This document shows, piece after piece, positions 1 through 22,925 of a stretch of DNA of 64,000 nt. Every line of letters begins with the position of its first letter. Position 1 is the first letter of the stretch. The notes under the pieces are model-generated. The model searched no databases. It was not told where the DNA came from and saw nothing but the letters and a program-made list of their open reading frames with translations. The position numbers were made by a program, and so were the translations under genes. This DNA is from Leucoraja ocellata (Eukaryota). The stretch is taken from the NCBI GenBank assembly GCA_036785375.1, contig JAWMAR010000008.1, forward strand, positions 11,966,001-12,030,000. The letters run 5' to 3'.

Positions 1-800
1 GATACGGTGAAAAACTGTTTTGTGTGCTATCCAATTAAATCATACTGTACCCAAGTACAATAAAATTATACACGTACAATAGGTAGTGCAAAGAGAAGAA
101 ATAAACCGAGTACAAAATACAATGTTATAGCTACTGAGAAGTGCAGACAAAGAAATAAAAAGTGCAAGGGTCACATAGTGGTAGGGTGGGAGATCAGGGC
201 TACACCTTATATTGTGAGAAGTCATTTCAGTAGTCTGATGATCCTGGGGAAGAAGCAGTTCCTGAATCTGGTGGTAGCACAGGAATACTGATCTCATCCA
301 TGTTCTTCTTGGTGTGGCTGATCCACAGAGCTGCCGTGAAGGCCATCTATGAGGGCTGGTGTAGGGCAGTCAGGACAAAAGATGTAGCTTCTCAGCCCTG
401 AGATCCATGGCTCAAGACCGCACAAAACCAATGTAATGACTGTGAGCCTGGAAAGGGCAGCAATGCTGCAACTTTTCATGGGTTGCTGAATCCTATGGTC
501 TCCCATCTGTTGGAAGTGATTGATGCTGCTGCTTCCCATCTCATTGCATTGCTGCCCCCAGGTGAAGATTTTTCTGTTGAAACACTCGACTGCCAATGCT
601 ACAATTACCCCCCCCCCCCCATTAGCGCTGATTCCAGTCTTTTGTGCCTGGGAAAACATCCTGAGCACCAGTAGGAATAACATGCAAGATGTTTAAAGCG
701 CAGCTGACACAGGAGCACACAAAGATCTGTTGCTCTTTCCAAGGAAGACGTGCTGATTCATTTTGAGGCTCAGACTGTATCTCACTGTTTCCTTCCTCAG

Positions 801-926
801 TGGCGATACTGTATCCGACTAGAGAACCTTGGGACTGAAGTGGTACAGCTTCGGGAGAGGCACTGGCGGATCTTTAGCCTGTCTGGGACGCTGGAGACAG
901 TGCGAGGAAGAGGCGTTGTGGGCAGG
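801..926 (+). CDS. POLDIP2: POLDIP2/PDIP38 internal coding exon (ApaG/DUF525 domain), phase 0/0
   Basis: ccttcctcag|TGG...GGCAGG|gtgagt. Translates WRYCIRLENLGTEVVQLRERHWRIFSLSGTLETVRGRGVVGR, recognisably vertebrate POLDIP2 including the ApaG GxGVVG motif. Confidence 0.96.
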
Positions 927-2744
927 GTGAGTACCATGTGATGCTGATTGATGCCATCTCACTCCCCACCACCCCAGTAATCCCAAGAATTTACTCTTTA
1001 AAAATAAAGTGCAAGAATAACTCGGTGTTTCAGGCAGCATCTCCGGAGAATGTGAATTGGTAATATTTCATGTTGTGAGCCTTCTTCAGACTGATGTTCT
1101 TTAAAATCATGCTTGATTTACTCTTTAAGCAACCTTTACAATATTTGATTATATTAAGCTCCCTATTCCATTTAACGCTCTGGTGTGCCCAAGGATTTTG
1201 TTAAGACTGGTAAAATAGAAGGGCTCGGTTTGAGCAATTAGCAGTTTGAAATGTGTATCTGATGTTGCTGTATCCCGAGGAATGTAAATATAAGTAAACA
1301 AAGTGTCTAGGGCACTTATTAATGGGATTAATGTGTTAATGGGTGACACTTAGCAAGTCTATCACTGGACAATGGTTGCAGATTGCAGATATACTGTCTG
1401 CCTAGTGACAGTGGCATTGTTATCACATAGTGCTCAGTACACAGGTGTACAGTCAAGATTCGGCTATCAGAGCTCCTAAACTCAGTTCTTGATGATCCTC
1501 TTGACAGATGTGTATTGCAAGAACTATGTTTACAGGGAACAATTTATTATTTTAAATGAGCAAGTCAAACTAAGTTGTGAACTGATTTGCTAACAAAGAC
1601 ATGGACTTATTTTTACCTGCAGGGGAGATCATTGCAAAGTGTCTTAAGTAAAGCCTTGGGTAAAGTTACTATGTCTATATGGTGATGATGAGGATTTGAA
1701 ATCTGCTTTCAAATTAGTGTTTTTGTTAACACTTGGCCTCATAGTGCAGCTATTTATTTACCAGATTTTCATCAGCAAGGATAATGCAGACTAGTTTCAA
1801 GAAATTTGGCATGGTATAGTAAATGAAATCTTGCTAACCTCTAATGCTCCCGTGTATCTGCTCCCAGGCATGCTGTGCTTGGAGGCATCTGCTGGTGTGG
1901 CTTGTTCAGTTCAGAATACCTTCTCCTCCACCTTCAGGAGAAATACTGCAGCAGTTCAGGAAATCAACTCATCAAACTCCCACCACAACCTTTTACAGAG
2001 GCAATTGCAGATGAGCAGTACGCAAACTTTCTGCAAATGAGTAAATTAAAATATACAAATAGTTGATGTGATATAACGCAATTAATTTGTTCTTGAGAGA
2101 TTTAAGAGGCTTCCTAAAATTTTGATTAGTTTATTATAATCTGTTTAAAGGTATCTTTCTTAGGATCAACGATGACTTATTTTCACTGCTTTTGTGCATT
2201 CTGGGGTGGCAAACTCATTCAAGATGGGGCAGTATGACTGAAGGGGTGGGTGGTTTTTAGTTTGTAAGATGGTGTAATTATTCTACCGCTAATACAGGGC
2301 TCCTGTATGTGCTCCCAAAGCATGGGCTTGAGGACTGGAGAAACACTGCTGGTCAGATTCAGTGGAACTCTTGCCAGAGTATATTAGAGCTGTGCTGTAA
2401 GACGGAGAACACTCGGGAGTGAAGTTGAAAGGGAGATCTGATCAGTTTCCAATTCAAAAATGAATGGAAAAGTTAAATAAGGAAATGTTATTGATGTGCT
2501 GATGGCTATATTAGAAGGTAATCACAAAGGGAAGATGAGATGAAATACTTTCATTCACAAATGTTTGCTGACGCTTAATAACCCAAATCATTTCTCAAGG
2601 ACCTACTTTACAGCAGGCTGACGGAGGTAACAAATGGTGAACAGAGTTCATTATTGTAATCTCACTGTTACAGGAAATTGGGATTCATGTCCCCAATATG
2701 GACAAGGACACATTGCCTGTGATGAGATCTCTCTTGCTTTCTCC

Positions 2745-3210
2745 ATGTTAATTCTAATGCGGATGACAGTGTTGCTGTATGTTGAAATCCATGCAGCCCA
2801 AGTTGTCTACCTGAGCTAGTCCCATTTGCCCATGTTTGGCTCATATCCCTCTCAACCTTTACCATCCATGTACCTGTCCAAACTTTGTAATTGTACCCGC
2901 CTCTACCACTACCTCTGGTAGCTCATTCTCCATACCCTCCACCCTCTGTGTGGAAAAAGTTGTCACTCAGATCCCCTTTAAATCTTCCACCACTCACCTT
3001 AAAATGTCCTCTACCCTAGGAACAAGAATGCTGTTATTCACCTCATCTATGCTTCTTGTGATTTTATGTATCTCCATAAGGTCACCCCTTGGCTTCAATG
3101 CACATGGGGGGAAAAGCACTAGCCTATCCAGGCTCACCTTATAACTCATACCCTCCAGTCACAATCACGTGAATCCCTTTTACACCCTTTCCAGCTCAAT
3201 GACATTGTAC
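2745..3210 (-). mobile_element. CR1 LINE 3' fragment
   Basis: Reverse-strand CR1 3' ORF2/UTR signature (gctagtcccatttgccc...catatccctctcaacc...accctctgtgtggaaaa), seen in many other copies in the window. Confidence 0.75.
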
Positions 3211-3411
3211 CTAGGGTGACCTTGACTGCTCTGCTATTAGGCCTCAGGCACTGAGAACTGAATTTAAACTGAGAGCAAGTGCTAACAGAACGCTGAATAT
3301 TCATGTCCTTCATTAACTTCAGCTCATAAAACACATACTCCACTCTATTCCCTCTTCTTTGTATTTTCTGATTAAAAGGTAAATGTATTTTCTTTTCTGC
3401 TCTCTGTTTAG

Positions 3412-3491
3412 GAGCCGGTTCTATCGAAGGAGCAGCCTGCATTTCAGTACAGCAGCCACGTCTCACTGCAGGCACCCAGTGGTCACATGTG
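3412..3491 (+). CDS. POLDIP2: POLDIP2 penultimate coding exon (80 nt, ends in phase 2)
   Basis: ctctgtttag|GAG...CACATGTG|gtgagt. Encodes EPVLSKEQPAFQYSSHVSLQAPSGHM plus TG, continuing the previous exon in frame. Confidence 0.96.
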
Positions 3492-4986
3492 GTGAGTAAG
3501 CCCGTTGCTGCAGTTAGATCCAGCTTTGTGATTGCCTCACTGTTTGCTGCATTGCCTGGTTTCTATGAAATGAAACCATTTGGAATGGAGTTGGTCTATC
3601 TGCACAAATATAGACCCTCTGTGTGGCACAGCAGGTAATCTGTGTGTTACAGACATACAAATGCAAAGGTCCCTGCTTTATCTAGTACTTGTATTTGCCA
3701 GGATGATTGGAGCAAGGTTGATACAATTGTCGGATTATCTAGCAGCATAATCAGCCAAGGTTCTTGTACTAATCACTGAAGGGGTGTTGCCATGTGTGTG
3801 TGTGTTTTTGTGTAAGTGTAAATTTGTGTGTAAATTTGTGCATATCCAGGGAGCGCCATCAGAGGGTTATGGCCTGTCCCATGATTGATTTCTTGTTTTT
3901 GTGTGCACTTTCGGCCCAAGAGAAACACATAAGGGATACTATTTCTCTGGGTGTTTGTAACAGCAGTGGAATGCTTTGACTTGACGTTAGAGATATCCAT
4001 TTTTAGCTTCCTGCTGCCTGTTAGCATCCTGAAGCCTGAAACAAATGTTTATCGCTTCCTGACCAGGTGTCATGCTGTTGTTTCTTCGCCACTACTTACT
4101 GCTCAAACCAACCAACATCTAACATTGTAATAATTGACAATCTTGTCAGACATTTTTACTTCCCCTACCCACCCCATACCAGCATGGAAAGCCATGTGCT
4201 TTTGTTTAAAGCTGCTGAAGCTTGTTTACTGTGAACCAAAGTTTGAGGTTCAAATCTCTGCTTTAACAATACAGCTTCGATCTATGGATAGAAAAATAGA
4301 GGTAATGTTTCAGGTTGAAGGTCCTCGGCATTTTCTGTTTTGTTATTTTTCTTTTTTTTTTTTAATAGATTTTCAAACTTCCTCCCACTATCTGTCACCA
4401 GGGTTTACAGTTAGTCACTACTGAAGTAGAGGTCCAGCCAGGAAGGCATGGGGGCCCCAGTGTCAAAACGGAACTATCCCAGAGACATATTCAGTGGGCA
4501 AAATTAGTATGCATTTGTTGTAGTTGTTAATTATATGGTCACTTTTTTGTGACCAAGTGGATAGATAGATAATAAGCAAGAGGGTGAGAGGTTGCCAAGT
4601 GTAGACAGGAATGTGGTACTGAGGTTACTATCACAGCATTGTCTTGTTGAATGATGGAGCTGGCCTGAGGGGGATAGCGTCTTACTTGTGCTCTTTATTC
4701 ATGTGTTCATATGTGCTGATTATAAATTTGTTGCTTGAAGGCCAAAACTAACTGAAGTATAAGGACATTCATGCACTGCTCACAAAGGAGGCCGGTGTTT
4801 TATTTAGCGGTCTAATTCACTGATCACAGATTCAACTATGCTTGCAGGCTGGACGAGGTCATTAGTTTTGAGGTGTTTACGTGACTGCTGACTCGTTGCT
4901 TTTTGACTAAAGTTACTGACGGACTTTTGTCTGCTACCTGACTTGCTTCACTGCTGCTTTTCCGTTCTGGCTTCTGTCTCTTGCAG

Positions 4987-5003
4987 TGATTGTCCAGGCT
5001 GAT
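4987..5003 (+). CDS. POLDIP2: Candidate POLDIP2 micro-exon giving a truncated ...SGHMCDCPG* end (alternative donor could extend it to 5036)
   Basis: Long pyrimidine tract, then ttgcag|TGATTGTCCAGGCTGAT|gtatgt. In phase with the upstream TG: TGT GAT TGT CCA GGC TGA. Splice signals only, no homology support. Confidence 0.4.
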
Positions 5004-5104
5004 GTATGTTTTTTAATCCTTATTCTTCTGCAGGATGTGAGTGTAGCTTGCATAGCTGGCACTTTTTGCCCTTCCGCTGTGGCCATTTCAGAAAGCAGTT
5101 TGGA

Positions 5105-5385
5105 GCATCCATGTCACAGCACCAGAGACGTGGTTCGATCCTGACCTCGGGTGCTGCCTGGAGTTTACATGTTTTCCCTGAGATCATTGGGGTTTCCTCC
5201 CACATCCCAAAGACTTGGAGAGTTGAAGGTTAATTGGCCTCTAAATTGACCCTGGTGTGTAGGGAATGGTGTGAAAGTGGAATAACGCGAATCAAGTGTG
5301 ATTGAGGAATCAATGATCAGCTTGGACTCAGTGAGTGAGGAGCCTGTTGCCATTCTGAATGAATGTTTATATCAATCAAATAAAA
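5105..5385 (+). mobile_element. Decayed V-SINE copy (further fragments near 45430-45525 -, 56640-56770 -, 63520-63640 +)
   Basis: ggttcgatcc B box and ggtttcctcccacatcccaaagac...ggttaattggcc, similar to the copy at 9102. Confidence 0.75.
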
Positions 5386-5389
5386 TTCC

Positions 5390-6900
5390 ATATACCATTG
5401 TTTTGCACAGTTTAACAGTTGATCAGTATTATCGTGTATTGTATGACCATCCTCTCATTATAAAAATCTTTGCTAATTTTCCTGTCATCTGCAACTTGCT
5501 AACTCCAGCATTTGCGTTCAAATTATTAAATGTATACAACATACAGGAAGGTTCCCAGTGCTGATCCTTTTGGTATCCCACGGGTCTCAAGCTTCCAAAT
5601 ACAGACACAGACCGTCTCTACCACCCTCTGCCTCATATTATAAAGCCAATGTTTTGATCAATTTTATCTTGGATCCCACGGGCTTTAACCATTAGGGACA
5701 GTTTCCCATGTTTGATCTTGTAAAAGGTCTTGCTGAAGTTTCATTTGTTATTGCCCACCAATATATTTTGTTATTTCTGAAAATTGCTGTCAAATTGTTC
5801 AGATGGGATTTTCCCTTTGCTCAAGCCATACTTACTACCTATCATTGATCCCTGCCTATTTAACTGCAGATTAATCATGTTCATTTGAATTATTTCCAAT
5901 AACCTGCCATTGGACTTGCAGATCTATATTTACCAGATATATCCCTGTTGCTCTTCTTGTGTATAGGTACCAAGTTTCCTGACCTCCAGGCATCTTGTTA
6001 CCTCCCCTGTGGTCAATGAAGAATGTAAATATCTGTTTGGGCCCTTCCTCCCTACCTCCCATAGCAACCTGGGGCACATCTTGTCTTCTTTAATGATAAC
6101 ATTTTCCAGAATGTTACCATCCCTCTTGCTGACTCCCACAGCTACAATTGGTAATATACATGGGAAGCATTAATTTAACTCCTTGCTTCCATTCTCTGGC
6201 TCAACACATACAGATTGCTGTTTTGATATCTAAATTTATGATTATTCGTTCCCCCCAAATATTACTTAAAATCAGCTTTGGGATCTTCTGTTATCATGTC
6301 CATCAGTGATAATTCACACCCTCTCTTTTCTTTCTGAATTTCTCTTTTAAATACCTCCCTACAATTCTGTACTCCTGAATGTCGGCCCCTATTTTCAGTT
6401 CTCTGTGCCTGCCTTATGGTTTTTTTTTTGTCCAGCCATCCAGAGTTCCATGACTTCCCTGATAGCAACATGCTGGCCCTGAACTCTCCTACAATTTCCC
6501 TTTTGAATAACTACTTGTCAGATATAAAACTGCCTTTATGTAACAGTTCCCAAGCTACTTTTGTCAGGTGGTGTGCTATTGAAATTGAACTCTTCCATTT
6601 CAGGACCCCTTTTTCCCCCAAACCATCCTCTTCCAACGCCCTTTCCATGACTACCTTGAAACTTAAAGACACATTGACTCAACCTCCAAAATGCTCTCTT
6701 ACTGACACTTTGACCATCTGCCATCGACAGACACTGATATTAGGTCAGGTTTTGCCCTTTTCCCATCTAAGTACTGCCTCAAACAGCTTGCATATGCACT
6801 TAAAAATTCCACCCCTGCTACTTCTTTCACACTAAAGCTATTCCATTTAATTTGGGGCATATTGAAATCCCCTATTATTATGGCACTGTTACTCTTGCAG
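5390..6900 (-). mobile_element. Highly decayed CR1-like LINE body
   Basis: Patchy similarity to CR1 RT/EN segments (tcatctgcaacttg...cccagtgctgatcc, aaaggtcttgctgaag). No intact ORF, boundaries approximate. Confidence 0.55.
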
Positions 6901-9101
6901 TTCTCTTTTATTTGTCAACCTTTCTACTCCTCCATCTTCTGGGTCTGTTACAAGGCCTGTTGTCTACTCCCAGCGGATTATTCATTCCCATTTTTATTCA
7001 ACCCCGGAGGGAAATTGGTCTGCCAATGATCACAACACACAAGGTCCATCTACCTGGCCTTGAGATATCCTACCTCTTTTTTTTTCTCAATAATGGATTC
7101 CCTAATCAACATTGCACTACTACCTCCTTTGCATGCTGCCCTTTCATGCGTGAGGATTTTACAGCTTGGAATGTTGAGCTACCAGTCCTGCCTGTATTTC
7201 AACCATGCATGCCTCTGTAATAGCAACTATCATACTTCCAGTTGTTGGGCAATGCTCCTTAAGTTTAACTTCTTTACCAGTCAGACTCCATGCTTTAACA
7301 TAGATGCAATTTAAACTCTCATATGCCTGATCTATCCATGTCTGATCTGCATTCTTGACTTTCGTACCTTTGACTGCATCCCACCGCACCACTCACCTCT
7401 TCCTCCCAACCTGTACATATATTCTGTTTCCCCATCCCTGAATACCTTAAGGTCCTGCTCTTTTATCTGTGATCTAGCTTTTTAAATTTATGTTGCAAGA
7501 ATGATCACATTTTTCTAAAGTTGTTGGTACAAAAGTTGCCTACAACTTCTGTTTGTTCACCCTCTCCCCTTAGATTTCCACACAACAGTCTTTTGACATC
7601 TTTGACCCTGGGGCACTAGAATGACAACATACAATCCGAGATTCATGTTTATGGCTTTAGAGATACCTGAACTTCCATTATTATCAAGTATCCTACCACC
7701 ATTGCCCTTGCAGCTTGCTCCTTCCTCGGCAGTTTAGTTGCCCATGTGCCAGGTTGGACTTTTCGGAGACCATCCCCCTCCCCCCCCCCCCCCTCCCCCA
7801 CTCCATCCACCACTATCATCATCATTGTCCAACACAGAAATGTTTTGGAGTTATATTCACTCTGATGTTTGCCTGACTACAGGCCTGCTTCTCTCCCTTT
7901 GCCTGGTGCTCACCCATTCATTTTTTGGCTGTCTTTCCTTAAGTTGCCGAGTGGCTACCTCCTAATACCTATCAGCCGTATAGATGCACTGTAGTTTTTG
8001 CAATGGTCATTCATTTCGTAAAACCCTGTGCTTAAACTGGCCCAACAGGAGGTACTTCCCACAGATGTGGTCATCCAGCCCACAAGGAGTGCCATGGAAT
8101 TCCCATGTGTTTCAAGTCATGCAACACACGGTGCTGCCATAGTTTTTAGTGTAGAAAGGACCCCTTAAAATGTAGCCTAATATGTACCTAGTTTCATATA
8201 AACTACAAAATACTCACCAACTACCTACCAGACTGGCACCAATGTCCAGCTAAGGGCCAATGACTAGAAAATTACACAGGTCCTGACACCAAAGCCCTCT
8301 TAATCTTTTCCCTCAATACCCTCAATATACACAACCACTGATCCGCTTCATTTCCTTGAGTCCAAGAGCCCTGGTCCTGAATATATGTTGTTTGTTTGAC
8401 GTCGTCGAGAGATCCCAGGAACCTTTGTTACAGTCTCTCGCAAATATCTTTCCTTGGTTAGGGAGACCAAACATTATTCCAGGTGCACTCTCATCAGGGC
8501 TTTATATACTTGAAGCAAAGCATATTCATATCTTCCAGCAATTAAGGCCAACATTTATTTTGCCTTTGTAATTGCTTGATGAACCTACTTGTTGACTGAC
8601 TAATATTCAGTGACATCTGGCTCCTCACAACACCCATGCATTTCATTTCCTCTCCGTTTGGAATATCCTCCATTTCAATTTTTTTAACTAAAGCAAATTA
8701 CTTCCCATTTTCCACATTACCTTGGGACAAGTGGGATGCAACAAAGGTTCACATGGAGTACTCGGTTTGAGAGGACATTCCTTTGAGAGATTAAGCACAC
8801 CACACCAGGCAATCTGATAATTTCTCTATTTATCCTTCAGCTTAATTTTTTTTAAATCGTGACATTTCACCAGGGAATTATAATATTGGTCATTGGGACA
8901 GATATGAGCCAGTGAACAAAGCTTCACACAAAAAGAGTTGTATGAAGCATCTTAAAGGATATATAAAGATTTGATGGGTGGCCCTTCACTTAGACATTGA
9001 CAGCCACTAACAGTGGAGTGGTGTAAGATGAGGATGCTCAGGAGGCTTTGGATGACTGGAAATAAAGATAGCTTGGAAGGTTGAGCTGAGAAGCTCCATG
9101 A

Positions 9102-9432
9102 AGGGCAGCACGCTGGCACAGCGGTAGAGTTGCTGCCTTACAGCGCTTGCAACGCCGTAGACCTGGGGTTCGATCCCGCTTACAGGTGCTGTCTGTAGGG
9201 AGTTTGTACGTTCTCCCCGTGACCTGCGTAAGTTTTCTCCGAGATCTTCGGTTTCCTCTCACACTCCAGAAGTACAGGTATGTAGGTTAATTGGCTTGGG
9301 AAATGTAAAAATTATCCCTTGTGTGTGTTGGATAGTGTTAATAATAGTGTTAATATGCGGAGATCACTGGTCGGCGCAGACCCGGTGGGCCGAAGGGCCT
9401 GTTTCCGCACTGTATCTCTAAACTAAACTAAA
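9102..9432 (+). mobile_element. Full-length tRNA-derived V-SINE (HE1-like) with CR1-type 3' tail
   Basis: A box tggcacagcggtaga (9114) and B box ggttcgatcc (9167). V-domain-like gagtttgtacgttctccccgtg...ggtttcct. 3' gggccgaagggcctgtttcc followed by (ctaaa)n. Confidence 0.85.
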
Positions 9433-12061
9433 AAGGTACACTGGTGTTGTCATAAGCTAATATGCAGGACTTTTTAAAAATAGAAACAAATTGGTTTAGA
9501 AGTTGGAAGATTGCCTGGTATGTCATTAGCTGGTGCTATTTCTCTGCCCTACTTTTTGGCAGCCTTGGGTTTGAGCCCGAGGGAGACTTTCCTCAATAGG
9601 AATAGACCAAAAGCATAATGGAGACCCGTCCATAGTTGGTGTCTCGGAAGTAAACTACAAAGCTCAGCTTGCTGCTGGTGTTGGCCTTACAAGTTCATGG
9701 TAAATCTAAATTGTTCCTGCTTAATGGCTCTAATGGGCTTCCCATGGAGCTGATGCCAGTTTTATGCTAGGTCACAGGCTAGCATGCCATCTGTTATATT
9801 GCTAAATCCAACCCTTCCTTCCCCTAGTAGAGTCTTCTGTTGAGGGTGGTGGCCACTGGTTTCAATGATGCGAATGCATTGGAAGCAGATGCACAGATAG
9901 TGAATGAATCTACCATGCCCACAGGCTGCTGGACATATCCTGTCCAGGTGATAAGGAGCTTATGTTTGCAGTGATTATGCTTCCTCTGCAGTACATGACT
10001 GGCTCCTAGTCATTTTAGGTATCTTTCTCAGCTCATGAGATGTATTTTTTCTCAATTGTTCAACTGATTTTGTGCATTTCTTAAAATCCTGCTCTCTAAA
10101 TTTCATTTGAGATTTTCATGCTCAGTCTTTGAATACAAGATGTATGAGATATTAGTTATGTTCTGGCATTTCCCCCCATGACCTTGTAATCTTCAATATG
10201 CGAATTGGGCTTCCCATATAATCCAGCCTAACTTTCACAACCCAATTATTCCTAACCACTTCAGTGCTCTCTGGTGGATTTATTCCCAGCTGTCCATGGG
10301 ATTCAGCCAACTCTTGCTCAAAATTAATCTGGTGAATGTGCACGAGGATTAAGAGCAGGGAGAGGATTTACTGAATGGCTGGAATGTAGTTATGCTATAC
10401 CATTGTTTAACAAGAGACGGGGCATCTGTGTAACTGGGTCTGTTGGGCTGCCAATGGCGGTGGGTAAAAGATGGATAAAATTCCAAGGGATGGCATAAAT
10501 TGAATATCGATACGGTTGCATTTGTGTGGATCGTAGCGTGATGTTTGGTAGAGTTGACACAGAGTTGACAGAGATCATCAAAGAGAAGGTCGATGGGATC
10601 TGGTTGAAAAATTGTCTTGGTTGAAAAATGAATTTGGTGGCCAAAAACAAAGATAATAGATGATAAAAGGTTTTAGTGATCAGAGGGCTGTATGTAATGG
10701 GCTTCCATAGAGTTCACTCATTTGTATTTTTGTAGTGCATTGGACTTGGATACAGTGGTCTATAATCAAGATGTTCGCTTCAGGTACCATAATGAGTGGT
10801 GCTGAGGAGGAACGTTTTGGGCTGTAGAGGAGATCAGTGGGACTGGTGTGCAGATTAGCAGATGGGATTCAGTGCAAGATACTGCACGCTGGAGCAGCTC
10901 GATCTCACTGGCACTGTCATCAATTGGCCAACAGCGTCAGTGGGAAGGATGTGACGGCACCAGAGGGGTGCAGAGGATGGTACCAAGATGGAAATTATGA
11001 TTGATGAGAAACTGTTTGTTTTTCTTGGTAGTAAAGATAGCAGTTACCCATGTCCCTTTACAGGAGGTAAGTGACAACGTTCATGAGAGGAGTTGGAGGA
11101 GGGAGAATGGCATGCAGAGTCTGAAGAAGGGCTCCCGACCGGAAATGTTACCTATCCATTCCCTCCAGAGATGCTGCCTGACCTACTGAGTTACTTCAGC
11201 AATTTGTGTTTTGCAGGCAGAGATTTGTTTATTGATTGAAGTGTTGTGAGTTGCTGAAATGGTGAGGGGGACCACACTCCTTGATGATAGTCACAACCTG
11301 CTGGGTTACTGACCGAGAGTTAGGAAATGCATCACAAAATCCAGTGGGTACAATGGGCTGAATGACCTCTGCCAGAGCTGTACACTTCAGTAATTATGAT
11401 GTCCACTGGGGATTGCTTTAGAGACCTATGTATTGGGACTCAGCAATTTCTGCCCTTAGGATTTCTCTCCCCCCCCACCCCCATTACCCAACTCCTGGAG
11501 CCCATGTAGGGAGTTGTCTAGGTCTCTGATTGCCTGCTTATGCTTTACTAAGTCAAAAAAACATACTTCGTGTGTGCTAGGGTCACCCATTGAGTTTGAT
11601 TCTCCTTTCCAGGAGGCTTGCTGCAGTTGGAGGTCTGTGTTAGACTTTCCCTTCCAGCCCCACACTTTCCAGCGGGGCCGAGCTCAGGACAGACAGGGAA
11701 CCCTCTCTTGAGTCTCAAGTGCAATATGTGGGGACTGCAAACATTTAGTGGTTCTCTGGTATCTCCTTAGGATCAGTGTCCTAATCATGTTTGCTCAAAC
11801 TTCTGAGAGTTGTCTTGGGGTATTTTATTATATTACAAACAGTGCATTAGTTCTGAGAAAGACTGATTTGGATGGGAATGTGTTAATAAGAGCATGTCCA
11901 TGGGTACTGTACTCACAAAAGTCTATGAATAAACCTTCCCTTTAGATTATATCCCAGCTAATCCCCTCCCTTCCCACTTCCCTAGCCTTGCTTCCATAGA
12001 TAATATAAATCAGTTGTTGGGGGCCATTTCCGGAGACTGATCTTGTCTCTGCATTCCACAG

Positions 12062-12191
12062 GGGTTCCTATCGCTTTGAGAGCACCAACCGGAGTCTCCT
12101 CGATGTTCGTATTCCACCATTCTCCCTCGAAAGCAAGAACGGCGACTCTCCCAATGGGTTCTTGCCAGGCCCATTCTCCTCCTTAACCTAA
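12062..12191 (+). CDS. POLDIP2: POLDIP2 alternative terminal exon A (paralog of the last exon)
   Basis: tctctgcattccacag|G completes TGG, then GSYRFESTNRSLLDVRIPPFSLESKNGDSPNGFLPGPFSSLT*. Colinear with the canonical last exon. ATTAAA at 12661. Confidence 0.88.
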
Positions 12192-13203
12192 GTATGAGGT
12201 AGTTACTGCAGTCTCTCACTACAATGATAACAAGTGTAAAGGTAGCAATAGACTTTGGGGAAATAGGTTTGTGCTGCCCCCATTCTATGATCTGCCTTCC
12301 ATGGTAAAGAAGTTCAGTTAGGCTCCACAATAACCAGGAGGAGAGGTATCTGTTCCTGTTGGATAGAACTGACTATCACTGCAGAATGATGAGAATTTCA
12401 CCAATTCATACTATGATGCTGTAATGATAGGTACATTTATGGCATTGCTGCAGCAGTTTGTGGACATGTATTACATGATTGGACAAGGGCATACCATATA
12501 GTTTGTTAGTGCAAGAGTGTGATTTTTTTATGTTCTCCTTCTTTCCGTATTTTAAATAATCGCACCGATTACCATGCCTCATTTACTGCCTCCCACCAAT
12601 ATTGAATGTACTAAGCAGTATGTCAGCCTATTATCTAGGATTGTTGTAGGTGATCTCTGAATTAAAATGTTGTCACCTTATTACTTCGAAGGAATATTGT
12701 AAGCAGTGGTACTGTTTCTTTAATTATTCCCCAATGTAGATGTCACCAGCAAGCCCACCATTTAATGCTCATCCCTAGTCACCTTTAGGAAAGTGATGGT
12801 GAGCACCTTCTCGAACTGTTGCTGTTCTTCTGGTGAAAATTCTGCCAGTTCTGTTGGGTTGGCCTCTTATTAAGGGCTTCCAGTCAGAAAGACATCCATC
12901 CAGCACTGCCCTCTGCGTTATATCACTAAACCAATTATATATCAATTTCATCAACACACCTTGGATCTCTTGTCCTATAACCTTCTGAGAGCCTACTATG
13001 CAGGATTTTGTCAAAAGCCTTAAACATGTCTATTGCTCTCCCTTCCTTGATTTTTTTTTTTAGTTACCTCCTCAAAATCATGGATTTGTGAGACACAATA
13101 TCCTCTGCAGAAAGTCATTCTAATTCATAATCACTCCCAGCCTGTAATTTCCAGGCTTATTTCCACTGCCTCTCTTGAATAGAGACAACATGAGCTTCCC
13201 TGC

Positions 13204-13286
13204 GTTTAAGAGGGAACTGCAGATGCTGGAGAATCGAAGGTTACACATTTTTGGAGAATCGAAGGTTACAGCATTTTTGTGTAACC
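13204..13286. mobile_element. 83-bp internally deleted Penelope-derived insertion with perfect 13-bp TSD
   Basis: tgagcttccctgc at 13191-13203 and 13287-13299 flanks gtttaagagggaactgcagatgctggagaatcgaagg...gcatttttgtgtaacc. Confidence 0.75.
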
Positions 13287-13714
13287 TGAGCTTCCCTGCA
13301 CTGCTCTGGTACTTGATCCATGGCAAATGAAGTTTCAAAATTCTCCATCAGTTCCCAAGCAACCCCACTTTCCCCCGCATCCCCCCTTTTCTTCCCTTTG
13401 TATCCTGAGATAGATTTTATCATGTTCTAGGGAATTTTCCACTCTGATGCAGCTCCAATATTTCTTCTGTCTTTCTGATACAGACATGCTCCAGAATATT
13501 AGTATTTCCCTCCCATCTCCAAATGGTGAGAGATTTAGGATTTCCAATGCATGATTTACAAATGTATCGTAAAACCATTAATCCAGCATTCTCAGGACTT
13601 TGGTGTCAGACTGGCAATTTTTCTGGACTATTGGACATCATTTCTATTGGCAATTTTACTTCTTTGTTAAGGTGTTAGAGTAATATAAAGATTCTAGTGT
13701 ACCGGGTAGGTTTA

Positions 13715-13945
13715 AAGGGAACCTGGAAAATGGGGCCCTAGTGTGTTTCAAGGGAGCATGGAAATCGGGCCCAGGTGAGTTTCAAGGGAACATGGGAATC
13801 GAGGCTTTGCTGCGATAAAGGGAGTGAGGGATTGGGCCCCGGTGAATCAAAAGAATGTGTAACAGGGCCCCAGTAAGTCAAAGGAAGTGAGGGAATTGGG
13901 TCCTGTGAGTCAAAGGGAATGTGGGAATCGGGCTGTAGTGAGTCA
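13715..13945. repeat. Degenerate ~33-bp minisatellite
   Basis: Repeated units resembling gggccccggtgagtcaaagggaatgtgggaatc. Confidence 0.7.
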
Positions 13946-14671
13946 GTGGCTGAAGTATCAGGATTTCTGAACAACAAGCTAGAGGATTAATGGGGTTTGG
14001 CAAATAACACTGTAAACTAACAATGTTATTGTTAATTGCTTTGGGAATTGTTTACATTAGTGGAGGTGTTATATTGATGTTGCTGAGACCACTTGGAATA
14101 TTGTGCACAGTACCAACCTTATTTAAGGAAGGATATTAATGAGTTGAAAGCAGTTCTGATAAAATTTGCTGGGCTGGTACAGAAATAGGCTGGTTACGCA
14201 AAGAGGAATAGTTGGACAGGTTGGACTTGTATTTCCTGGAATTTGGAAATGTGAAGCAATTTGACTGAAAAGATCTTCAGTGGACCCAACAGGATGGATG
14301 TGGTAAAAAAAATATTTCCTTTTGTTGAAAAATATAGAACTGGAGGCTACTGTTAAAAAGCAAGGAGAATTTTTTCTCTTAAAAGGTTGTGACTCGGCAA
14401 CTTTCTACCTCAAAGGTTTGTGAAAACAGAGTTTGTATATATTTACGACAGTCATGGGTGAATTCTTAATAAACAAGGGGGTGTTGATATGATTCATGTC
14501 CTGTGTTAAATGTGATTGGCTTGGGAGATGGGGTAAGAGGTTATAGAGGTTACCTTGTAAGGAAATGTGAAGAAGTGTTAGGAGGGGCAGGGTTGCTTGG
14601 TGTTTTGGGTGTGTTGTGGAGCTGTGCTAAAGCAGATTGCTGCTGCTTATTACTGTTTGCACCTTCCACAG

Positions 14672-14780
14672 GGGCTCGTTCACTTTCCGAAGGCCAGGCA
14701 GCAGCACCTTCGATGTTTCCATCCCATCCTTTTCTCTCGAGAGCAGTAGTGAGGACGGCGGGCCCTTCTCCCCGGTCTGA
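14672..14780 (+). CDS. POLDIP2: POLDIP2 alternative terminal exon B (paralog of the last exon)
   Basis: tttgcaccttccacag|G, then GSFTFRRPGSSTFDVSIPSFSLESSSEDGGPFSPV*. Same phase and core spacing as exons A and C. AATAAA at 16307 followed by a GT/T-rich tract. Confidence 0.82.
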
Positions 14781-15368
14781 ATATTTGCCTCCAGCAAATG
14801 ATGGAGTAACTAAACACAGTCTGCACTCAGGATCTTTCCTCGAACCAGAGCACCAGTGGACCCAACTCCAGGGGTGGTGCTGCCTGGACAAAGATGTGGC
14901 ACATACATCACCAGCCTACGCACAGGGACATGTGGCCAGTTCCGCTATAATATTCGCACTCACTCAGGCTTCTGTTGGGGGTTAGATTTGGATGGAGTTG
15001 TATGAGGTGAGTGGAAGCAGGTAGATTTGGATGGAGATGGATGAGGTGAATGGAAGCAGGGTAAATGTGGAGTTTGCTGGTGTTGAATTTAGGTTGGGGT
15101 TAATTAATAACATATTTATTAGGAGATTGATTACTTCTTGCTAATTGTCTTGTAGTCCAGGAGCACTTTTTTGGAGAAACAGTGCTGTGTGCTTTCTCCG
15201 TGTTACTTGGTTTTATGAAGTGTGCTGTGTTGTGAAGTTATATAGGAATCAAACTTCACTGGAGACAGGGCAATAGTGTACACCCGGTACTTGGGAGCCC
15301 AATATGTCTAACGGTATGGATGACCTGCCAATGCTACAAAACAGTTCCAGATTCTGTCTTTCAAACTT

Positions 15369-15382
15369 GTTGCCATGGCAAC
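15369..15382. promoter_or_regulatory. Perfect palindromic RFX X-box
   Basis: GTTGCCATGGCAAC, a 14-bp palindrome equal to the RFX consensus. Confidence 0.55.
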
Positions 15383-15394
15383 ATTATGTGTGAA

Positions 15395-15620
15395 GCACTG
15401 GGGTACTGTACTGATAGGGACGGCTCTGTCACTATAACACGGGTACAGTACTGGTGAGGACATCTGTCACTTATAACACTGGAGTACAGTACTGGTGGAG
15501 ACATGTCTGTCACTGTATAACACTGGGGTGCAGTACTGGTGGGGGGGGGGGGGGGGGCAGTCTGCCACAGTATAACGCTAGGGTGCAGTACTGGTGGAGA
15601 CTTCTGTCATTGAGTAACAT
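15395..15620. repeat. ~38-bp minisatellite (reverse-orientation copies at ~55445-55510 and ~55865-55990)
   Basis: Units resembling gtgcagtactggtggagacatgtctgtcactgtataacactggg. Confidence 0.75.
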
Positions 15621-16306
15621 TAGGCTATTGTCTGTTTAGTCTAGGTCCAGTCGTGGTAGATGCTGGTCTATTACTGTCTAAATTTGATTGGTACATGTCT
15701 CCCTATGTAGCACCAGGGGCAATATTGGGCTTGTCTCTACACCAGAAAGTGATAGGTATAATTCAGGTGGATTAATAAGCACAGAAATGTTTGATTTCTG
15801 TGCTTAGCAGTGACTCTAATTGGTTCTGCCACTGTTTACTGGCAGTATGGAATTACTTGTGTCTGAACGTCCATGCTGATTCGGATCCAACCCTGGTGAT
15901 TGCTGCTGTTGTCTTGCTCAGCTACAGAGCAATTGGATGCAGCAGATGATCTGCCAGGTGGGTCCTTAGTGCCTGGGTTTAGCAAGCAGTTGGGATTTAG
16001 ACAGTTCTGGACCCAGGAGTCAGGAGTGCTGCTCTTCAGCAGTTTGGTAAGGCCAGGGCTACCCTTGTTGTGAGGCCACACACAGTTACCAGCGATCACT
16101 GTATGAAAACCTACCCAAAGAGCACCTGAGTGAAATGTGCCACAGATTGTAACCTCCGCTTGCCTTGGAGATCTACATTTGGAATGGATGTACCAGGTGT
16201 TGTGTGTTACTGCTGGTGTCCCTGGTTCCATGGTGCATACTGTGCTTCATTATTTGCTGTGCCTATATCTGTGTGCTCCTGCTGCTGATGTTTTTTGACT
16301 AGTTTA

Positions 16307-16312
16307 AATAAA
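16307..16312 (+). terminator. Candidate polyadenylation signal for POLDIP2 exon B
   Basis: AATAAA followed by gatttttgtttggattatctgtttt, between exon B and exon C, outside recognisable repeats. Confidence 0.45.
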
Positions 16313-16886
16313 GATTTTTGTTTGGATTATCTGTTTTCCCCCTTATTCAATGTCAGTATATGTTATCCCAGTGTGAAATCTTCTACCCCCACGGAAAGCC
16401 TAGCACATAGTGGCAGGGCCCAGTGAAGGAGAGAAACCAGCTGCATTTCCTGCAGCATTGGACCTCTTCACCCATAAACATCTCGCCCCTGACTGGGGGC
16501 GTTCAGTCGTTCATGAATCAAAGCAAAACAATGCAAATGCTGGAGATACTTGGGAGATTGGGTATTGTGTGTGGAGAGAGGTACAAGAGTGAATAGGAAC
16601 TAGAACAGGTTTCCAGCATTGACTGAGCAGGAAGGTGGGGCAACAAGTGCTTGCGGCCCAAGAGAAGGCACCTGAAGGTGCAGCCTGTGGAGTATCTATT
16701 ACACGATGATAGGGCGCATCATTAAAGGCTGCACCTCGGGGAACCACCTGGGTGACTGGGAGAGCTGACACAACCTATCTGAGTGGAGAACTCAGACCCT
16801 AGTCGCTTTGTTCCTGTGCCAGGGACTGCGGCCTCAGGCGCAGTAGAGTTGTATCATTTAATCTGCTCCTTTCATCCTGTCTACAG

Positions 16887-17001
16887 GGGGACGTTTCGCT
16901 TTGAGAGGCCCGAGGGTTCACAGCTCGATGTGCGAATCCCACCCTTCTCCTTGGAGAGCAATAAGGATGACAAGGCTCCCCCTGCTGGCTACAGCTGGTA
17001 G
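16887..17001 (+). CDS. POLDIP2: POLDIP2 canonical terminal coding exon (C)
   Basis: cctgtctacag|G, then GTFRFERPEGSQLDVRIPPFSLESNKDDKAPPAGYSW*. Matches the mammalian C-terminus as I recall it (GTFRFERPDGSHFDVRIPPFSLESNKDEKTPPSGLHW). Confidence 0.96.
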
Positions 17002-20000
17002 ATGGCCATCTGCTGGACCCTGACCTCACAGGGGCTGCTGCTGCTGCTGCCGCCTGGAACTGATACGATTAGGGAGAAGCGAAGGAGAATGTCTTCGAGT
17101 CAGCCTGTTGCAAACGTCCTGGGTTTGCTGTGTAAAACATGATCACGTTGTTGTAAAGCTCCTTTGAAATTGGACTCTGGGACTGATGTATTATTGTATG
17201 AAGAAGTTATGGGTTGTAGGGGTTAAGGCGGGGAGCGATTGGGATGAAGGAAAGGTGGAATGGGAGCTGGAAATTCTTTGCTGCACATATTCAGATGTAG
17301 TCAGTCTTGGAAGGTGGAATGGAGTTGGGTTTCTCTGCTCATCTGCCCTTCCTGTCAAGTAACTATCCAACCCCTTTCCCTCCCAACCCTACCCGTGCAT
17401 ATTTGAAAAAAGCAGCATAAACGCAGGAAGAGGTGTCCATGAGAAGTGCGGCTCTCAGTGGCCAGACCCCAGCCAGCTAACCCAGTCTGATTGGTGTCTC
17501 ACCTGCTGAAAGTGTCCCCACTGGAGACATTGAAACACAACCTGCAGCAAAGGTGAATTTCCAGCATCTTCTGTCTCCTGTGTCTCTATTCTTCCACTGA
17601 GTCCTTGTCATCATCCTGCACATGGTGGCTGAATTTCCAGATAATCCGTGGCTGATACTGTGTGTTCACAGGATGAATGTTGCCGGCCCTGGTTTGTTCT
17701 GGTCTTTTCCTGCCTCCAGTGCTCCCCTTCCCCTCCACCTCCCCACTTCCAGTCTGAAGAAGAATTCTGACCTGTAACACCACTCATCCCTTTTCTCCAG
17801 AGATGCTGCATGACCCACTGAGTTACTCCAGCTATCTTTGGTATAAATGAGCATCTGCGGTTCCTTTAATGTGTGTCAGCCAGCTGGTGTCTGGAGAGGG
17901 CCAATTGGAGGTAAGAGGCATGGGTGCAGCCCATGGCTGCGGGCTACATCACCGACTCCAGTGCAGATCTCCTTGGCTGGCCTTGCCTCAGGTTGGCAGG
18001 CTGTTGGTATGTATGCTGTTGCCACTCTTGGCCACAATGCCGGTTGGTTTCTGCTCCACGCCGGGTGCTGCCCTGGCTGGGTGCACTGTCGGTAGATCGA
18101 CAGAGAGCTGTCAGTATGACCAGGTCTGATTCCTGCTTTCTCAGACTGGAGCCAAACGCACACTATTAGCTTAAGGAGCAAAGGAGCACGTCTGACACAG
18201 TGGGCGGTGGGGATGGCTGAAGTCCCTGAGCAGCCCTTGGACTGACGATAGATTCAGCTGCCCTTCCCATCCCTTAACTGAGAATACTGCTTTCTTCCTT
18301 GTGCTTCCTGCTTCCCTTTAAATATGAAACTGGGAAGGCATTTAAAGAGGGAAATCTTAAAAATATTTTTAGTACCAACAGAGGCAAGGCCGTTCAGCCC
18401 ATCGAGCTGATCCCCCGACCCATGTATTTGCTTCCCATGGTATGCAGTGCCCGTTTGAATGCTCCAATGGATGTGCTGTCCCTGTCCTGTCCTGAGAGGG
18501 CTGTGTCACTCAGTGACCAGTGGTTGTGGGGAGGTTGTAGGATTTCACTGGGATAAATAATTTCCTGCTGGGAATGGCAGGAATGTGCTCCACTGATCCT
18601 GGCACGAGACCAGCACTGGGGAATGTGCTGCCTTCCCCTTCAGCGACTGTGGAGCGCCGGAACTGGAATTTAGCCCTGTCCTTGCAATGAGCCAATGGGC
18701 TGCACACGGAGAATGTGGCACCCAACTCCTGCACTGACTCTGTTATTAATCTGCTTTAAAATCATTCCCAGATGGTGCAGGGCGAGGTTCGTTCCACAGT
18801 GTTTCAGTCTGTCTATACTTAACCCCTCAGCAACCTCCACCCCAGTCTGCAGGTTTATGCCCTGTGGTCCCGGTGGCTGACAGACGACAACTCCAACTTG
18901 TAGGCTTGTGGGACAAGATGGGACATTTCAGAGCTATGGGGCAGAGACTGCCTGGTGCCTGGACAATGATCCCATGCAGAGCATTCTTTCCTACCCTCCC
19001 CCAGTGCCAGAGCGAGCTGCACCAGTGACTGCTGGCCCAGAGCTTGCCCTGTCTGCACAACACCTGAACACCCACCATGTATCTGGTCAGCACCATGTCT
19101 GTGGGCACAATGGCTTCCAGTAAGTGTGAAGGCCCTGTCCTTAAGAAAATCCTGATCACATATCTGGGAGACCTGTGAAGACTTCCACGGTCAAAGACCG
19201 TGTCGGGCAGCCAATCCTATAAAATAAGGATATCTTTCAGTCAGTATGCGCACAGGATTCTCCTGCAAATAACAGTCACCATAGAACTGATGGGCCGAGG
19301 GGCCTGTGTCTGTGCGGTACAACTCTACAATTCCATAAGTATGTTAAATGATATAAATCGATAAATATTGGCCAGGATGGGGTTTAGTTTTTCACTTTCT
19401 GTTAGTGCTGTAGGATCCCTTATGTTCTCTTAATGCCCAGAAAGTTGGGAATCTACCCAGCTGTTAGCTTACCTGGGCAGGTACTTACTGCAAACCAGCC
19501 AGAAATGCCGAAACACGAAGGGTTGAGTGGGATTCAACAACTGAAGAAAATGTAATATTTTAAAATGTTACTCGTGAAACTGAGGCTGAGGGAGGTGGCT
19601 ACAGCATTGATGGACAATTGGTTATTGGCATCCCGCACCCTGATTGTTCTTGTGGATTGGAAGGCAGCAAATGTGATCTCACTGTAACAAAGGAAGGAGA
19701 GATACAGGGAATGACCAACCTGTTCCATAATGACAGAGGTGCAGGAAATGCTGAACTCTATAATGGGTAGAAAACCTAAAAAAAAAATAGGTTTGAACAG
19801 AGTCAACATGGTTTGATGACATTGAAATTATGTTTGACCTTTCCAATGGAAATCTTTGAGGATGTGATTGGTAGAATAGTTGAGGAGGAATCGGGTGTAT
19901 TGGATTTTTAGAAAGCTTTTCAATAAAGTCCCCTCGGGGAATTAGTCAAACAAAATTCCAGGCTTTGCCCCTTCTTCAGAACTGGACGAAGTGTCAGACC

Positions 20001-21940: not shown

Positions 21941-22560
21941 ACCCATTCCTTCTCTCCGGAGATGCTGCTCCAGAGATCTCTCCATCTCTGAGTTACTCCA
22001 GTATTCTGTGTCTACCTTTGGCCAAACCTTTGTGTCTATCTCAGGGGCTAACTACACCCGACCGCCCTCCAACCAACCAGGGATTAATTACACCCACTGT
22101 CCTCTGGTTGGCGAGACTTTGCTGGGAACGTGCCTCGTATGATGGGGTGGCGGCTGCCCATGCCGGGGTTATGAAGAAACGTCACCCACTCCTTCTCTCC
22201 AGAGATGCTGCCTGTCCCGCTGTTACTCCAGCTTTTTGTGTCTATCCGGGGTTATGTGAAGCGGACTGGCCTTTTACCAGGTGACCCGGCCTTGGTGAGG
22301 TAGGTCGATGGCCCGGGCCTGTGCGACTGTGGCGCTCCGCTTCCCACTTCACTCGGGTACCAGCTTCCGAGCCCGCGCCGCCCACAAACCAAAGCAGGCT
22401 CTCGACTCGGGCCTCAGTCACGGCTTCGCTCGCTGGTCTGAACCGCACACCGAAACCCGAGCTCGGACCTAAACCCCTATAAATCCAGCCCAGCCGGAGG
22501 ATTCTTTGACTTTGACCAAAATGGCATCACGTTCCCTCGTTTCAAAGCATCAAACCTGGG

Positions 22561-22925
22561 CAGATGTTCCCTCAACCCGGCCAGGTGTTCCCTCAATCCG
22601 GCCAGATGTTCCCTCAACCCGGCCAGATGTTTCCTCAACCCGGCCAGGCGTTCCCTCAACCCGGCCAGGTGTTCCCTCAACCCGGCCAGATGTTCCCTCA
22701 ACCTGGCCAGGTGTTCCCTCAACCTGGCCAGGTGTTCCCTCAACCCGGCCAGGTGTTCCCTCAACCCGGCCAGGTGTTCCCTCAACCCGGCCAGGTGTTC
22801 CCTCAACCCGGCCAGGTGTTCCCTCAACCCGGCCAGGTGTTCCCTCAACCCGGTCAGGTGTTCCCTCAACCCGGTCAGGTGTTCCCTCAACCCGGCCAGG
22901 TGTTTCCTCAACCCGGCCAGATGTC
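22561..22925. repeat. Homogeneous 21-bp minisatellite, about 17 copies
   Basis: (caggtgttccctcaacccggc)n. Generates the repetitive ORFs FPQPGQV / PGVPSTR / HLAGLRE. Confidence 0.97.

Follow-up and report, generated by a model that had tools for sequence, protein, structure and literature searches.

Tandem duplicated exons that substitute for one another at splicing are a familiar source of protein isoforms. Swaps at the C-terminus make up 77 of the 236 such events in human, and TPM1 carries three 3′ exons (Martinez Gomez et al. 2022, PMC9741552). The array considered here belongs to this class and lies in POLDIP2, the 3′ end of which is carried by a 64,000-nucleotide (nt) stretch of the genome of the skate Leucoraja ocellata (the window: contig JAWMAR010000008.1, positions 11,966,001 to 12,030,000; all features below lie on its + strand). 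Human POLDIP2, or PDIP38 (PDB 6Z9C, 6ZLX), is a mitochondrial CLPXP adaptor with a YccV-like and a DUF525 domain. It is described as a heme-sensing adaptor that delivers ALAS to CLPXP (bioRxiv 2024.07.05.602318), and it is reported to be required in flies for the removal of sperm mitochondrial DNA (PMC11914606). In the skate gene, three homologous exons, A, B, and C, follow one shared donor, and each offers its own ending for the protein. The array is real, ancient, and transcribed; its class of mechanism is a familiar one, and databases already list the isoforms as predictions.

Like the events in PMC9741552, as presented in the available part of that paper, the POLDIP2 array has homologous tandem exons, alters one region, that region being C-terminal, has an ancient vertebrate origin, and keeps its core residues. 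Unlike them, the POLDIP2 swap spans two strands of a folded domain, and A and B can share one mRNA. POLDIP2 is not mentioned in the available text of PMC9741552 (0 occurrences) or in the supplement of its predecessor, PMC8373072; both are human-based, and human has only C. RefSeq and UniRef hold the same three endings, plus an alternative lamprey ending, as separate predicted isoforms (Rhinoraja X1-X5; Heterodontus, Callorhinchus, Acipenser, and Petromyzon X1-X3 each), but these are automated and uninterpreted, and no text was found that relates them as one ancient exon array. The literature searched, which lacks most subscription papers, held no description of skate or fish POLDIP2 ending isoforms; the fly paper, in its available part, deals with N-terminal isoforms only (PMC11914606). 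A first-pass annotation of this DNA, made from sequence alone, had likewise known of no functional description. It had also supposed that automated fish annotations might list such isoforms, and indeed skates, sharks, chimaera, sturgeon, and several teleosts have predicted isoforms with each of the three endings.

The gene model unites YccV-like and DUF525 domains in one protein and matches human 6Z9C at E 4e-187. Exons in the window and in the 20 kb upstream show no mismatch to Amblyraja radiata protein P0001 in any of the coding positions found and aligned, in a comparison that covers all exons but one small exon of about 10 codons. The last shared coding exon (3412..3491) ends in a phase-2 donor within a Trp codon, ATGTG|GTGAGT. 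The acceptors that follow are cacag|G at 12062, cacag|G at 14672, and tacag|G at 16887; each exon completes the Trp codon in phase with 3491 and opens an intact frame whose 24-residue core has neither stop nor gap. Exon A (12062..12198) has 42 codons and a stop at 12189-12191, followed by 7 nt and a donor. Exon B (14672..16330, end approximate) has 35 codons, a stop at 14778-14780, and then about 1.5 kb of 3′ untranslated region (UTR). Exon C (16887..19500), the human-type ending and main form, has 37 codons and a stop at 16999-17001; it is covered by contigs from two sequencing runs (X1 records 4-8, X2 records 13-15), and its 3′ UTR extends to at least 19500, the next AATAAA being at 19922. 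The peptides thus read as the first-pass annotation gave them, from the shared donor to the gap-free core. These are homologous tandem exons of one gene, all in the same phase to one donor.

There are only three copies: within the window they match one another by tblastn at E 1e-5 to 4e-11, the next match being at E 0.2, and a whole-genome search returned 3 matches from 3 candidates, so no further copy was found in either. Taken alone, none of the three exon peptides (0/3) has a Pfam match. As a separate observation, reading through the shared donor (3487-3495) gives Met-Trp-stop at once, and isoforms that stop at this Trp, or shortly before it, are in databases for basking shark, gar, lamprey, and chicken (P0054, P0301, P0220, P0224, P0406).

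The copies have diverged in a way that bespeaks constraint. Between copies the core is identical at 13-17 of 24 residues; third codon positions differ at 13-16 of 24 and second positions at 3-6 of 24, bearing out the remark that the copies use different synonymous codons. The proportion of synonymous differences (pS) is 0.59-0.86, versus 0.21-0.32 for nonsynonymous differences (pN). The 600-nt flanks are unrelated, as had been noted, with a single 16-nt match in six comparisons. Intact frames, synonymous excess, and unrelated flanks together argue for old duplication under constraint rather than chance: A, B, and C are an old exon duplication under purifying selection, as first proposed.

Four of the 24 listed sequencing runs (X1, X2, X21, and X23), none of the 24 being recorded as RNA, were compared with window positions 600-19500 for evidence from RNA. 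The single-cell run X21 is too shallow on these exons for use. High-depth bins and joints in the tables are repeats and were ignored; abundant SINE-like (short interspersed element) repeats with very high RNA depth lie at 9100-9430, 11120-11210, 13200-13300, and 17790-17835. Upstream of the array, the splice 926>3412 joins the two shared exons, as contigs of X1 and X2 and 53 raw X23 reads show. Contigs then start at the A acceptor in X2, at the B acceptor in X1 (record 1), and at the C acceptor in both X1 (record 4) and X2 (record 13), and each carries 26 extra letters. These 26 letters, one G, and the GGG common to A, B, and C make a 30-letter overlap, as would be expected if the assembly graph branches after the shared exon. 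If the 26 letters are placed in the shared exon, its predicted bin depth is 4.43 in X2 (observed 4.43; 3.69 without them) and 2.48 in X1 (observed 2.49; 1.92 without them). Since the depth fits only with the extra letters in the shared exon, we infer from contig starts and depth arithmetic that all three acceptors are spliced from the 3491 donor. By the same two lines of evidence, each copy is present in RNA and supplies the coding region alone, and the copies are used alternatively, as had been predicted.

The fate of exon A differs from that first envisaged. X2 record 9 consists of the 26 letters, 12061-12196, and 14670-15028, with 136 and 359 letters on its two sides; it is a GT-AG splice from 12198 to 14672 that joins A to B. 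The donor, GAG|GTAGTT at 12198/12199, stands 7 nt past the A stop and had been overlooked. A and B therefore occur in one contig and are exclusive only at the protein level, not strictly mutually exclusive as exons: B is coding when joined to 3491 and UTR when joined to A. Nonsense-mediated decay follows when a stop codon precedes the last junction by more than about 50 nt; the A stop, 7 nt before its donor, is too near, so decay should not be triggered, and A does not qualify as a poison exon. Among cartilaginous-fish RefSeq proteins in the lists of members, 6 of 15 A-type proteins are encoded by two or three transcript models, against none of 20 B- or C-type proteins, which fits variable downstream UTR exons of A.

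The first-pass annotation had instead treated A, B, and C as genuine terminal exons that each end at a poly(A) site of their own, near 12661 in the case of A. Both hexamers it pointed to are present, ATTAAA at 12661..12666 and AATAAA at 16307..16312, although 11 such hexamers occur between 3.4 and 25 kb and presence alone means little. The RNA backs only the second. The whole A-bin depth in X2 (1.63 predicted, 1.63 observed) comes from the A>B contig, the sole contig over A; nothing is left toward 12661, and no contig depth was found past the donor in X2. This, with a GT donor 7 nt past the stop, makes an A-specific terminal exon very improbable, even though bin depth in X23 alone cannot tell a 137-nt exon at 13x from a longer one at 3-4x, and one of the several transcript models of RefSeq A proteins could end near 12661.

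Exon B does behave as an alternative last exon. Its contigs (X1 records 1-3, X2 records 9-12) reach 16299, and X23 depth drops to about 2 or less before C. Coverage thus stops just before the AATAAA at 16307, which is followed by a U/GU-rich stretch and is the likely poly(A) signal of B-ending transcripts; the position of the poly(A) end follows from coverage. In raw reads of X23, the shared exon has a depth of about 66x, C 44-51x, B 15-27x, and A about 13x if its reads are confined to the exon. As a rough estimate, C accounts for two thirds or more of transcripts and A for about one fifth. X1 holds B and C with zero depth on A, and X2 holds A>B and C. This difference in A hints at regulation; contigs show presence, not absence.

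With B and C bringing different long UTRs, and A using that of B, the exons might be kept to swap 3′ UTRs that control mRNA level or location while the three proteins work alike; that all published functional sites lie in shared exons would suit this idea. Yet A and B, with one UTR between them, encode distinct conserved peptides, and the retention of both cannot be put down to a choice of UTR; class-specific residues are also kept across cartilaginous and bony fishes. We regard this explanation as quite improbable.

How old and how widespread is the array? The protein set comprised 418 entries, from a search with A, the best 120 of 858 full-length matches, and three cluster listings of at most 15 members each. 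Its endings were 64 A, 31 B, 265 C, 4 lamprey alternative, 25 invertebrate or paralog type, and 29 other. Searching with the A peptide yielded 36 candidates, of which 29 were matching proteins, ranging from skates to salmon. With B as the only query there were 2 candidates but no match, and the B-type proteins come from the cluster listings. A profile search of representatives at 50% (79 matches) brought to light no further type of ending. Entries from Rhinoraja, Heterodontus, chimaera, sterlet, Colossoma, and Coregonus include all three endings; for anchovy, the set is made up from two Engraulidae species or from P0086-P0088. Window A is identical to A of chimaera at 31 of 42 residues, sturgeon at 29, and herring at 30; window B matches chimaera at 25 of 35, sturgeon at 14, and anchovy at 17; window C matches the cow C ending at 29 of 37. 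Judged from these predicted proteins, each copy appears to have been conserved across species since ancient times.

An exon tree of 45 rows and 37 columns splits C and the invertebrate type from A, B, and the lamprey alternative (support 100/97), places B on one side of a branch at 89/85, and groups lamprey and hagfish C with gnathostome C. The lamprey alternative, with a GPF tail, is present in 4 entries from three genera, beside a lamprey C ending. Its grouping with A and B implies that the first duplication probably predates the lamprey-gnathostome split, some 500 million years ago. Likewise, A and B were likely already separate in the last common ancestor of jawed vertebrates. Because lampreys too have an alternative ending, the array is older, and also more widespread, than first proposed.

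That A and B are decaying duplicates or splicing noise is scarcely credible. Some A tails are indeed shifted or shortened (3 of 18 cartilaginous-fish A entries: P0035, P0045, P0003), and large lineages appear to lack both exons. The cross-lineage conservation already contradicts decay, however: A is about 70% identical between skate and herring or sturgeon, synonymous sites are saturated while frames are intact and flanks unrelated, and A and B take a sizeable share of reads. The altered A tails are those of horn shark, cloudy catshark, and Narcine entries; P0049 and P0002 are gene models that join A and C in frame. All five anomalies may be assembly or annotation errors.

Among 116 tetrapod-labelled entries there are 101 C, 4 of a separate paralog, 11 other, and no A or B; among 54 percomorph entries, 53 C, 1 other, and no A or B, counts that record absence from annotation rather than from genomes. 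C is thus the only ending in the 101 classified tetrapod entries, in line with the first-pass annotation, which gave the human protein only a C-type end. A and B were likely lost in tetrapods and in percomorph fishes. If so, catalogues of duplicated exons built on human data overlook old vertebrate splice events seemingly lost in tetrapods.

Splice isoforms can become separated after gene duplication, as in CALU, U2AF1, and MARVELD3 (Abascal et al. 2015, PMC4494069). POLDIP2 is absent from the text of that paper and from two of its three supplements. Teleosts may offer a similar case (P0182, P0198, P0373-P0376, P0088, P0110, P0112), with C only in one paralog, and A, B, and sometimes a diverged C in the other; unlike the published cases, it is known from predicted proteins only. 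B is the ending of every "-like" entry seen from Centroberyx and Myripristis; in clupeiforms, the "-like" gene has a strongly diverged C ending. Separately, lungfish and salamanders have a second, divergent POLDIP2-like gene (P0196, P0200, P0227-P0231), the last exon of which groups with amphioxus and hemichordates; Kulik et al. (PMC8138528), in the available part, report a single orthologue in most holozoan clades.

The swapped segment corresponds by alignment to human G332-W368. In the structure of Strack et al. (PMC7647994, available part), a hydrophobic groove lies between the sheets, and the distal sheet runs β12-β11-β14-β15; the exon is taken to encode most of β14, β15, and the tail. Kulik et al. 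(PMC8138528, available part; their strand numbering differs) note that β15 touches the N-terminal β0 strand and borders the cleft. Structure prediction, suggested in the first-pass annotation, gave AlphaFold2 models of A (P0001) and B (P0030) with two strands on the exon core (pLDDT, a per-residue confidence score, 82-86 in A and 73-85 in B; tails below 50), and Foldseek template-modelling scores of 0.72-0.78 to ApaG and FBXO3 domains. Every ending class retains the alternating hydrophobic positions. All three endings are predicted to complete the ApaG/DUF525 sandwich.

What then distinguishes the endings? Relative to C, A carries a small number of fixed substitutions (T333S, F334Y, N356K), and its tail is longer. 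This 18-residue tail is predicted to be disordered, and it is as conserved as the core between skate and herring (13 of 18 versus 17 of 24), with the motif PNGFLPGPF. A, B, and the lamprey alternative tails have in common a GPF/PY motif and hydrophobic ends. B is distinguished within the hairpin. Human R335, E337, R347, and P350 are near-invariant in A, C, and the invertebrate type: Arg335 in 45 of 51 C, 25 of 27 A, and 14 of 14 invertebrate-type tails; Glu337 in 50 of 51, 27 of 27, and 14 of 14. In all 24 distinct B tails, position 335 is not Arg and 337 is not Glu. B also lacks R347 and P350, two positions fixed by construction, since class B was defined by a motif that includes them. Of the four residues lost, the three charged ones likely sit on the outer face of the distal sheet, an orientation that derives from strand alternation and not from coordinates. 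In flies, the loss-of-function allele EMS-23 replaces a proline of DUF525 with serine (c.895C>T, codon 299; PMC11914606, available part). B carries Pro350-to-Ser; the fly proline could not be mapped, and no claim is made.

These patterns invite the thought that the swap works only through free C-terminal tails that set the half-life or location of the adaptor, for example as protease degrons, the hairpin differences being incidental. The conservation of the disordered A tail, the motif common to A, B, and the lamprey alternative, and the few fixed positions that separate the A core from C all speak for it. Against it, B lacks Arg335 and Glu337 from sharks to teleosts where the invertebrate type always has them, which looks like selection on the hairpin, and the B tail itself is poorly conserved between sharks and teleosts. 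A tails-only role is unlikely, though not far-fetched.

Several functional sites have been placed on the protein, each as reported in the available part of its source. CLPX docks on the N-terminal YccV-like part (PMC7647994); H225 is tied to heme-ALAS recognition (bioRxiv 2024.07.05.602318); PrimPol stimulation depends on R282 and R297 (PMC7913696); and GxGxxG at 298-303 is needed for CHCHD2 (bioRxiv 2026.03.14.711777). All are encoded by shared exons; that at 801..926, the ninth of 11 coding exons by our count, bears equivalents of the arginine cluster and the GxGxxG motif. CLPX docking is therefore likely unchanged by the swap, and the earlier suggestion that the swap bears on CLPX binding loses its footing. 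The swap likely acts on neighbouring surfaces and on further partners instead.

The whole is probably best explained by three selected exon copies, with splice choice from one donor, that yield three proteins differing in the final β-hairpin and tail. Splicing from the 3491 donor would pick A, B, or C, giving one body with different ends. C would be the ancestral human-type ending and main form; B, an alternative last exon with its own poly(A) site; and A, a cassette with its own stop 7 nt before its donor, spliced onto B. The heme ligand, the PrimPol and CHCHD2 motifs, and CLPX docking would be left intact while other clients or regulators change. Presumably, A would act mainly through its conserved disordered tail (PNGFLPGPF), and B through a similar tail and the loss of four conserved residues, three of them charged.

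Along with the limits given above for the B motif, the outward orientation, the annotation counts, and the altered A tails, several points weigh against this explanation. The runs come from a relative that differs from the window at about 1 position in 100. X1 and X2 are guessed to be RNA, though both hold the spliced joint. The A>B joint is known from one contig (depth 7.6) in one run. The first-pass annotation had proposed a check for junctions from 3491 to each acceptor; none is among the joints listed, and use of the acceptors comes from contig starts and depth. The three protein isoforms are known from DNA, RNA, and predicted proteins rather than from protein-level detection, and species other than those of the window and the RNA appear as predicted proteins only. 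Between skate and bony fishes B shows weak conservation (14-17 of 35), and it evolves faster than A. In the tree, lamprey plus B reaches only 87/75, and A does not form one side of a branch (10% of bootstraps). Neither a coelacanth entry nor a main lungfish orthologue was seen in the protein set. Finally, the AlphaFold2 models are poor overall (mean pLDDT 46 for A and 43 for B).

Skates, sharks, sturgeons, and many bony fishes likely make adaptor versions that differ in surface and tail, the isoforms themselves being predicted. A bolder proposal, possible but on balance doubtful, is that early vertebrates had splice-switched CLPXP adaptors: B would dock CLPX and sense heme without the charged face, taking other substrates or serving as a decoy; the A tail would add a binding motif; and fishes would tune mitochondrial proteolysis and heme synthesis by tissue, a capacity lost in tetrapods and percomorphs. 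If true, these natural variants would point to an unmapped client-binding surface, R335/E337/R347/P350, on human POLDIP2. The role of the last two strands and tail is not mapped in the available parts of the papers cited. Three natural, long-selected variants are ready probes for just this part of the protein, and they name four residues (R335, E337, R347, P350) for mutation in human POLDIP2.

How the choice among exons is made can be addressed in part. In Dscam-type clusters, each exon is preceded by a selector that pairs with one docking sequence located past the shared donor. Here, pairing of the donor region with the acceptor regions was at null level for all three pairs (300-nt flanks; 4-16 of 20 shuffles equally strong), and an arrangement of this type was rejected. 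No TGCATG (RBFOX-type) motif lies within 300 nt of exons A, B, or C. A long-range pairing is predicted elsewhere: an arm downstream of the A donor (12320..12358) with one 48-90 nt upstream of the B acceptor (14582..14624), at -40.7 kcal/mol. It was the best of seven region pairs tried, and none of 60 shuffles or of 39 real intron pieces was as strong. This unproven pairing would be predicted to bring the A donor close to the B acceptor.

Two minor features complete the locus. Tandem repeat arrays lie at 22540-22920 and 15400-15620, their units judged by eye at about 21 nt and 40-60 nt. Just upstream of A, the intron frame (12018-12061) reads WGP...VSA, and similar readings occur ahead of the A exon in the fish open reading frame fragments P0005, P0007, and P0029, not in P0006; this is a weak hint of a conserved intronic element.

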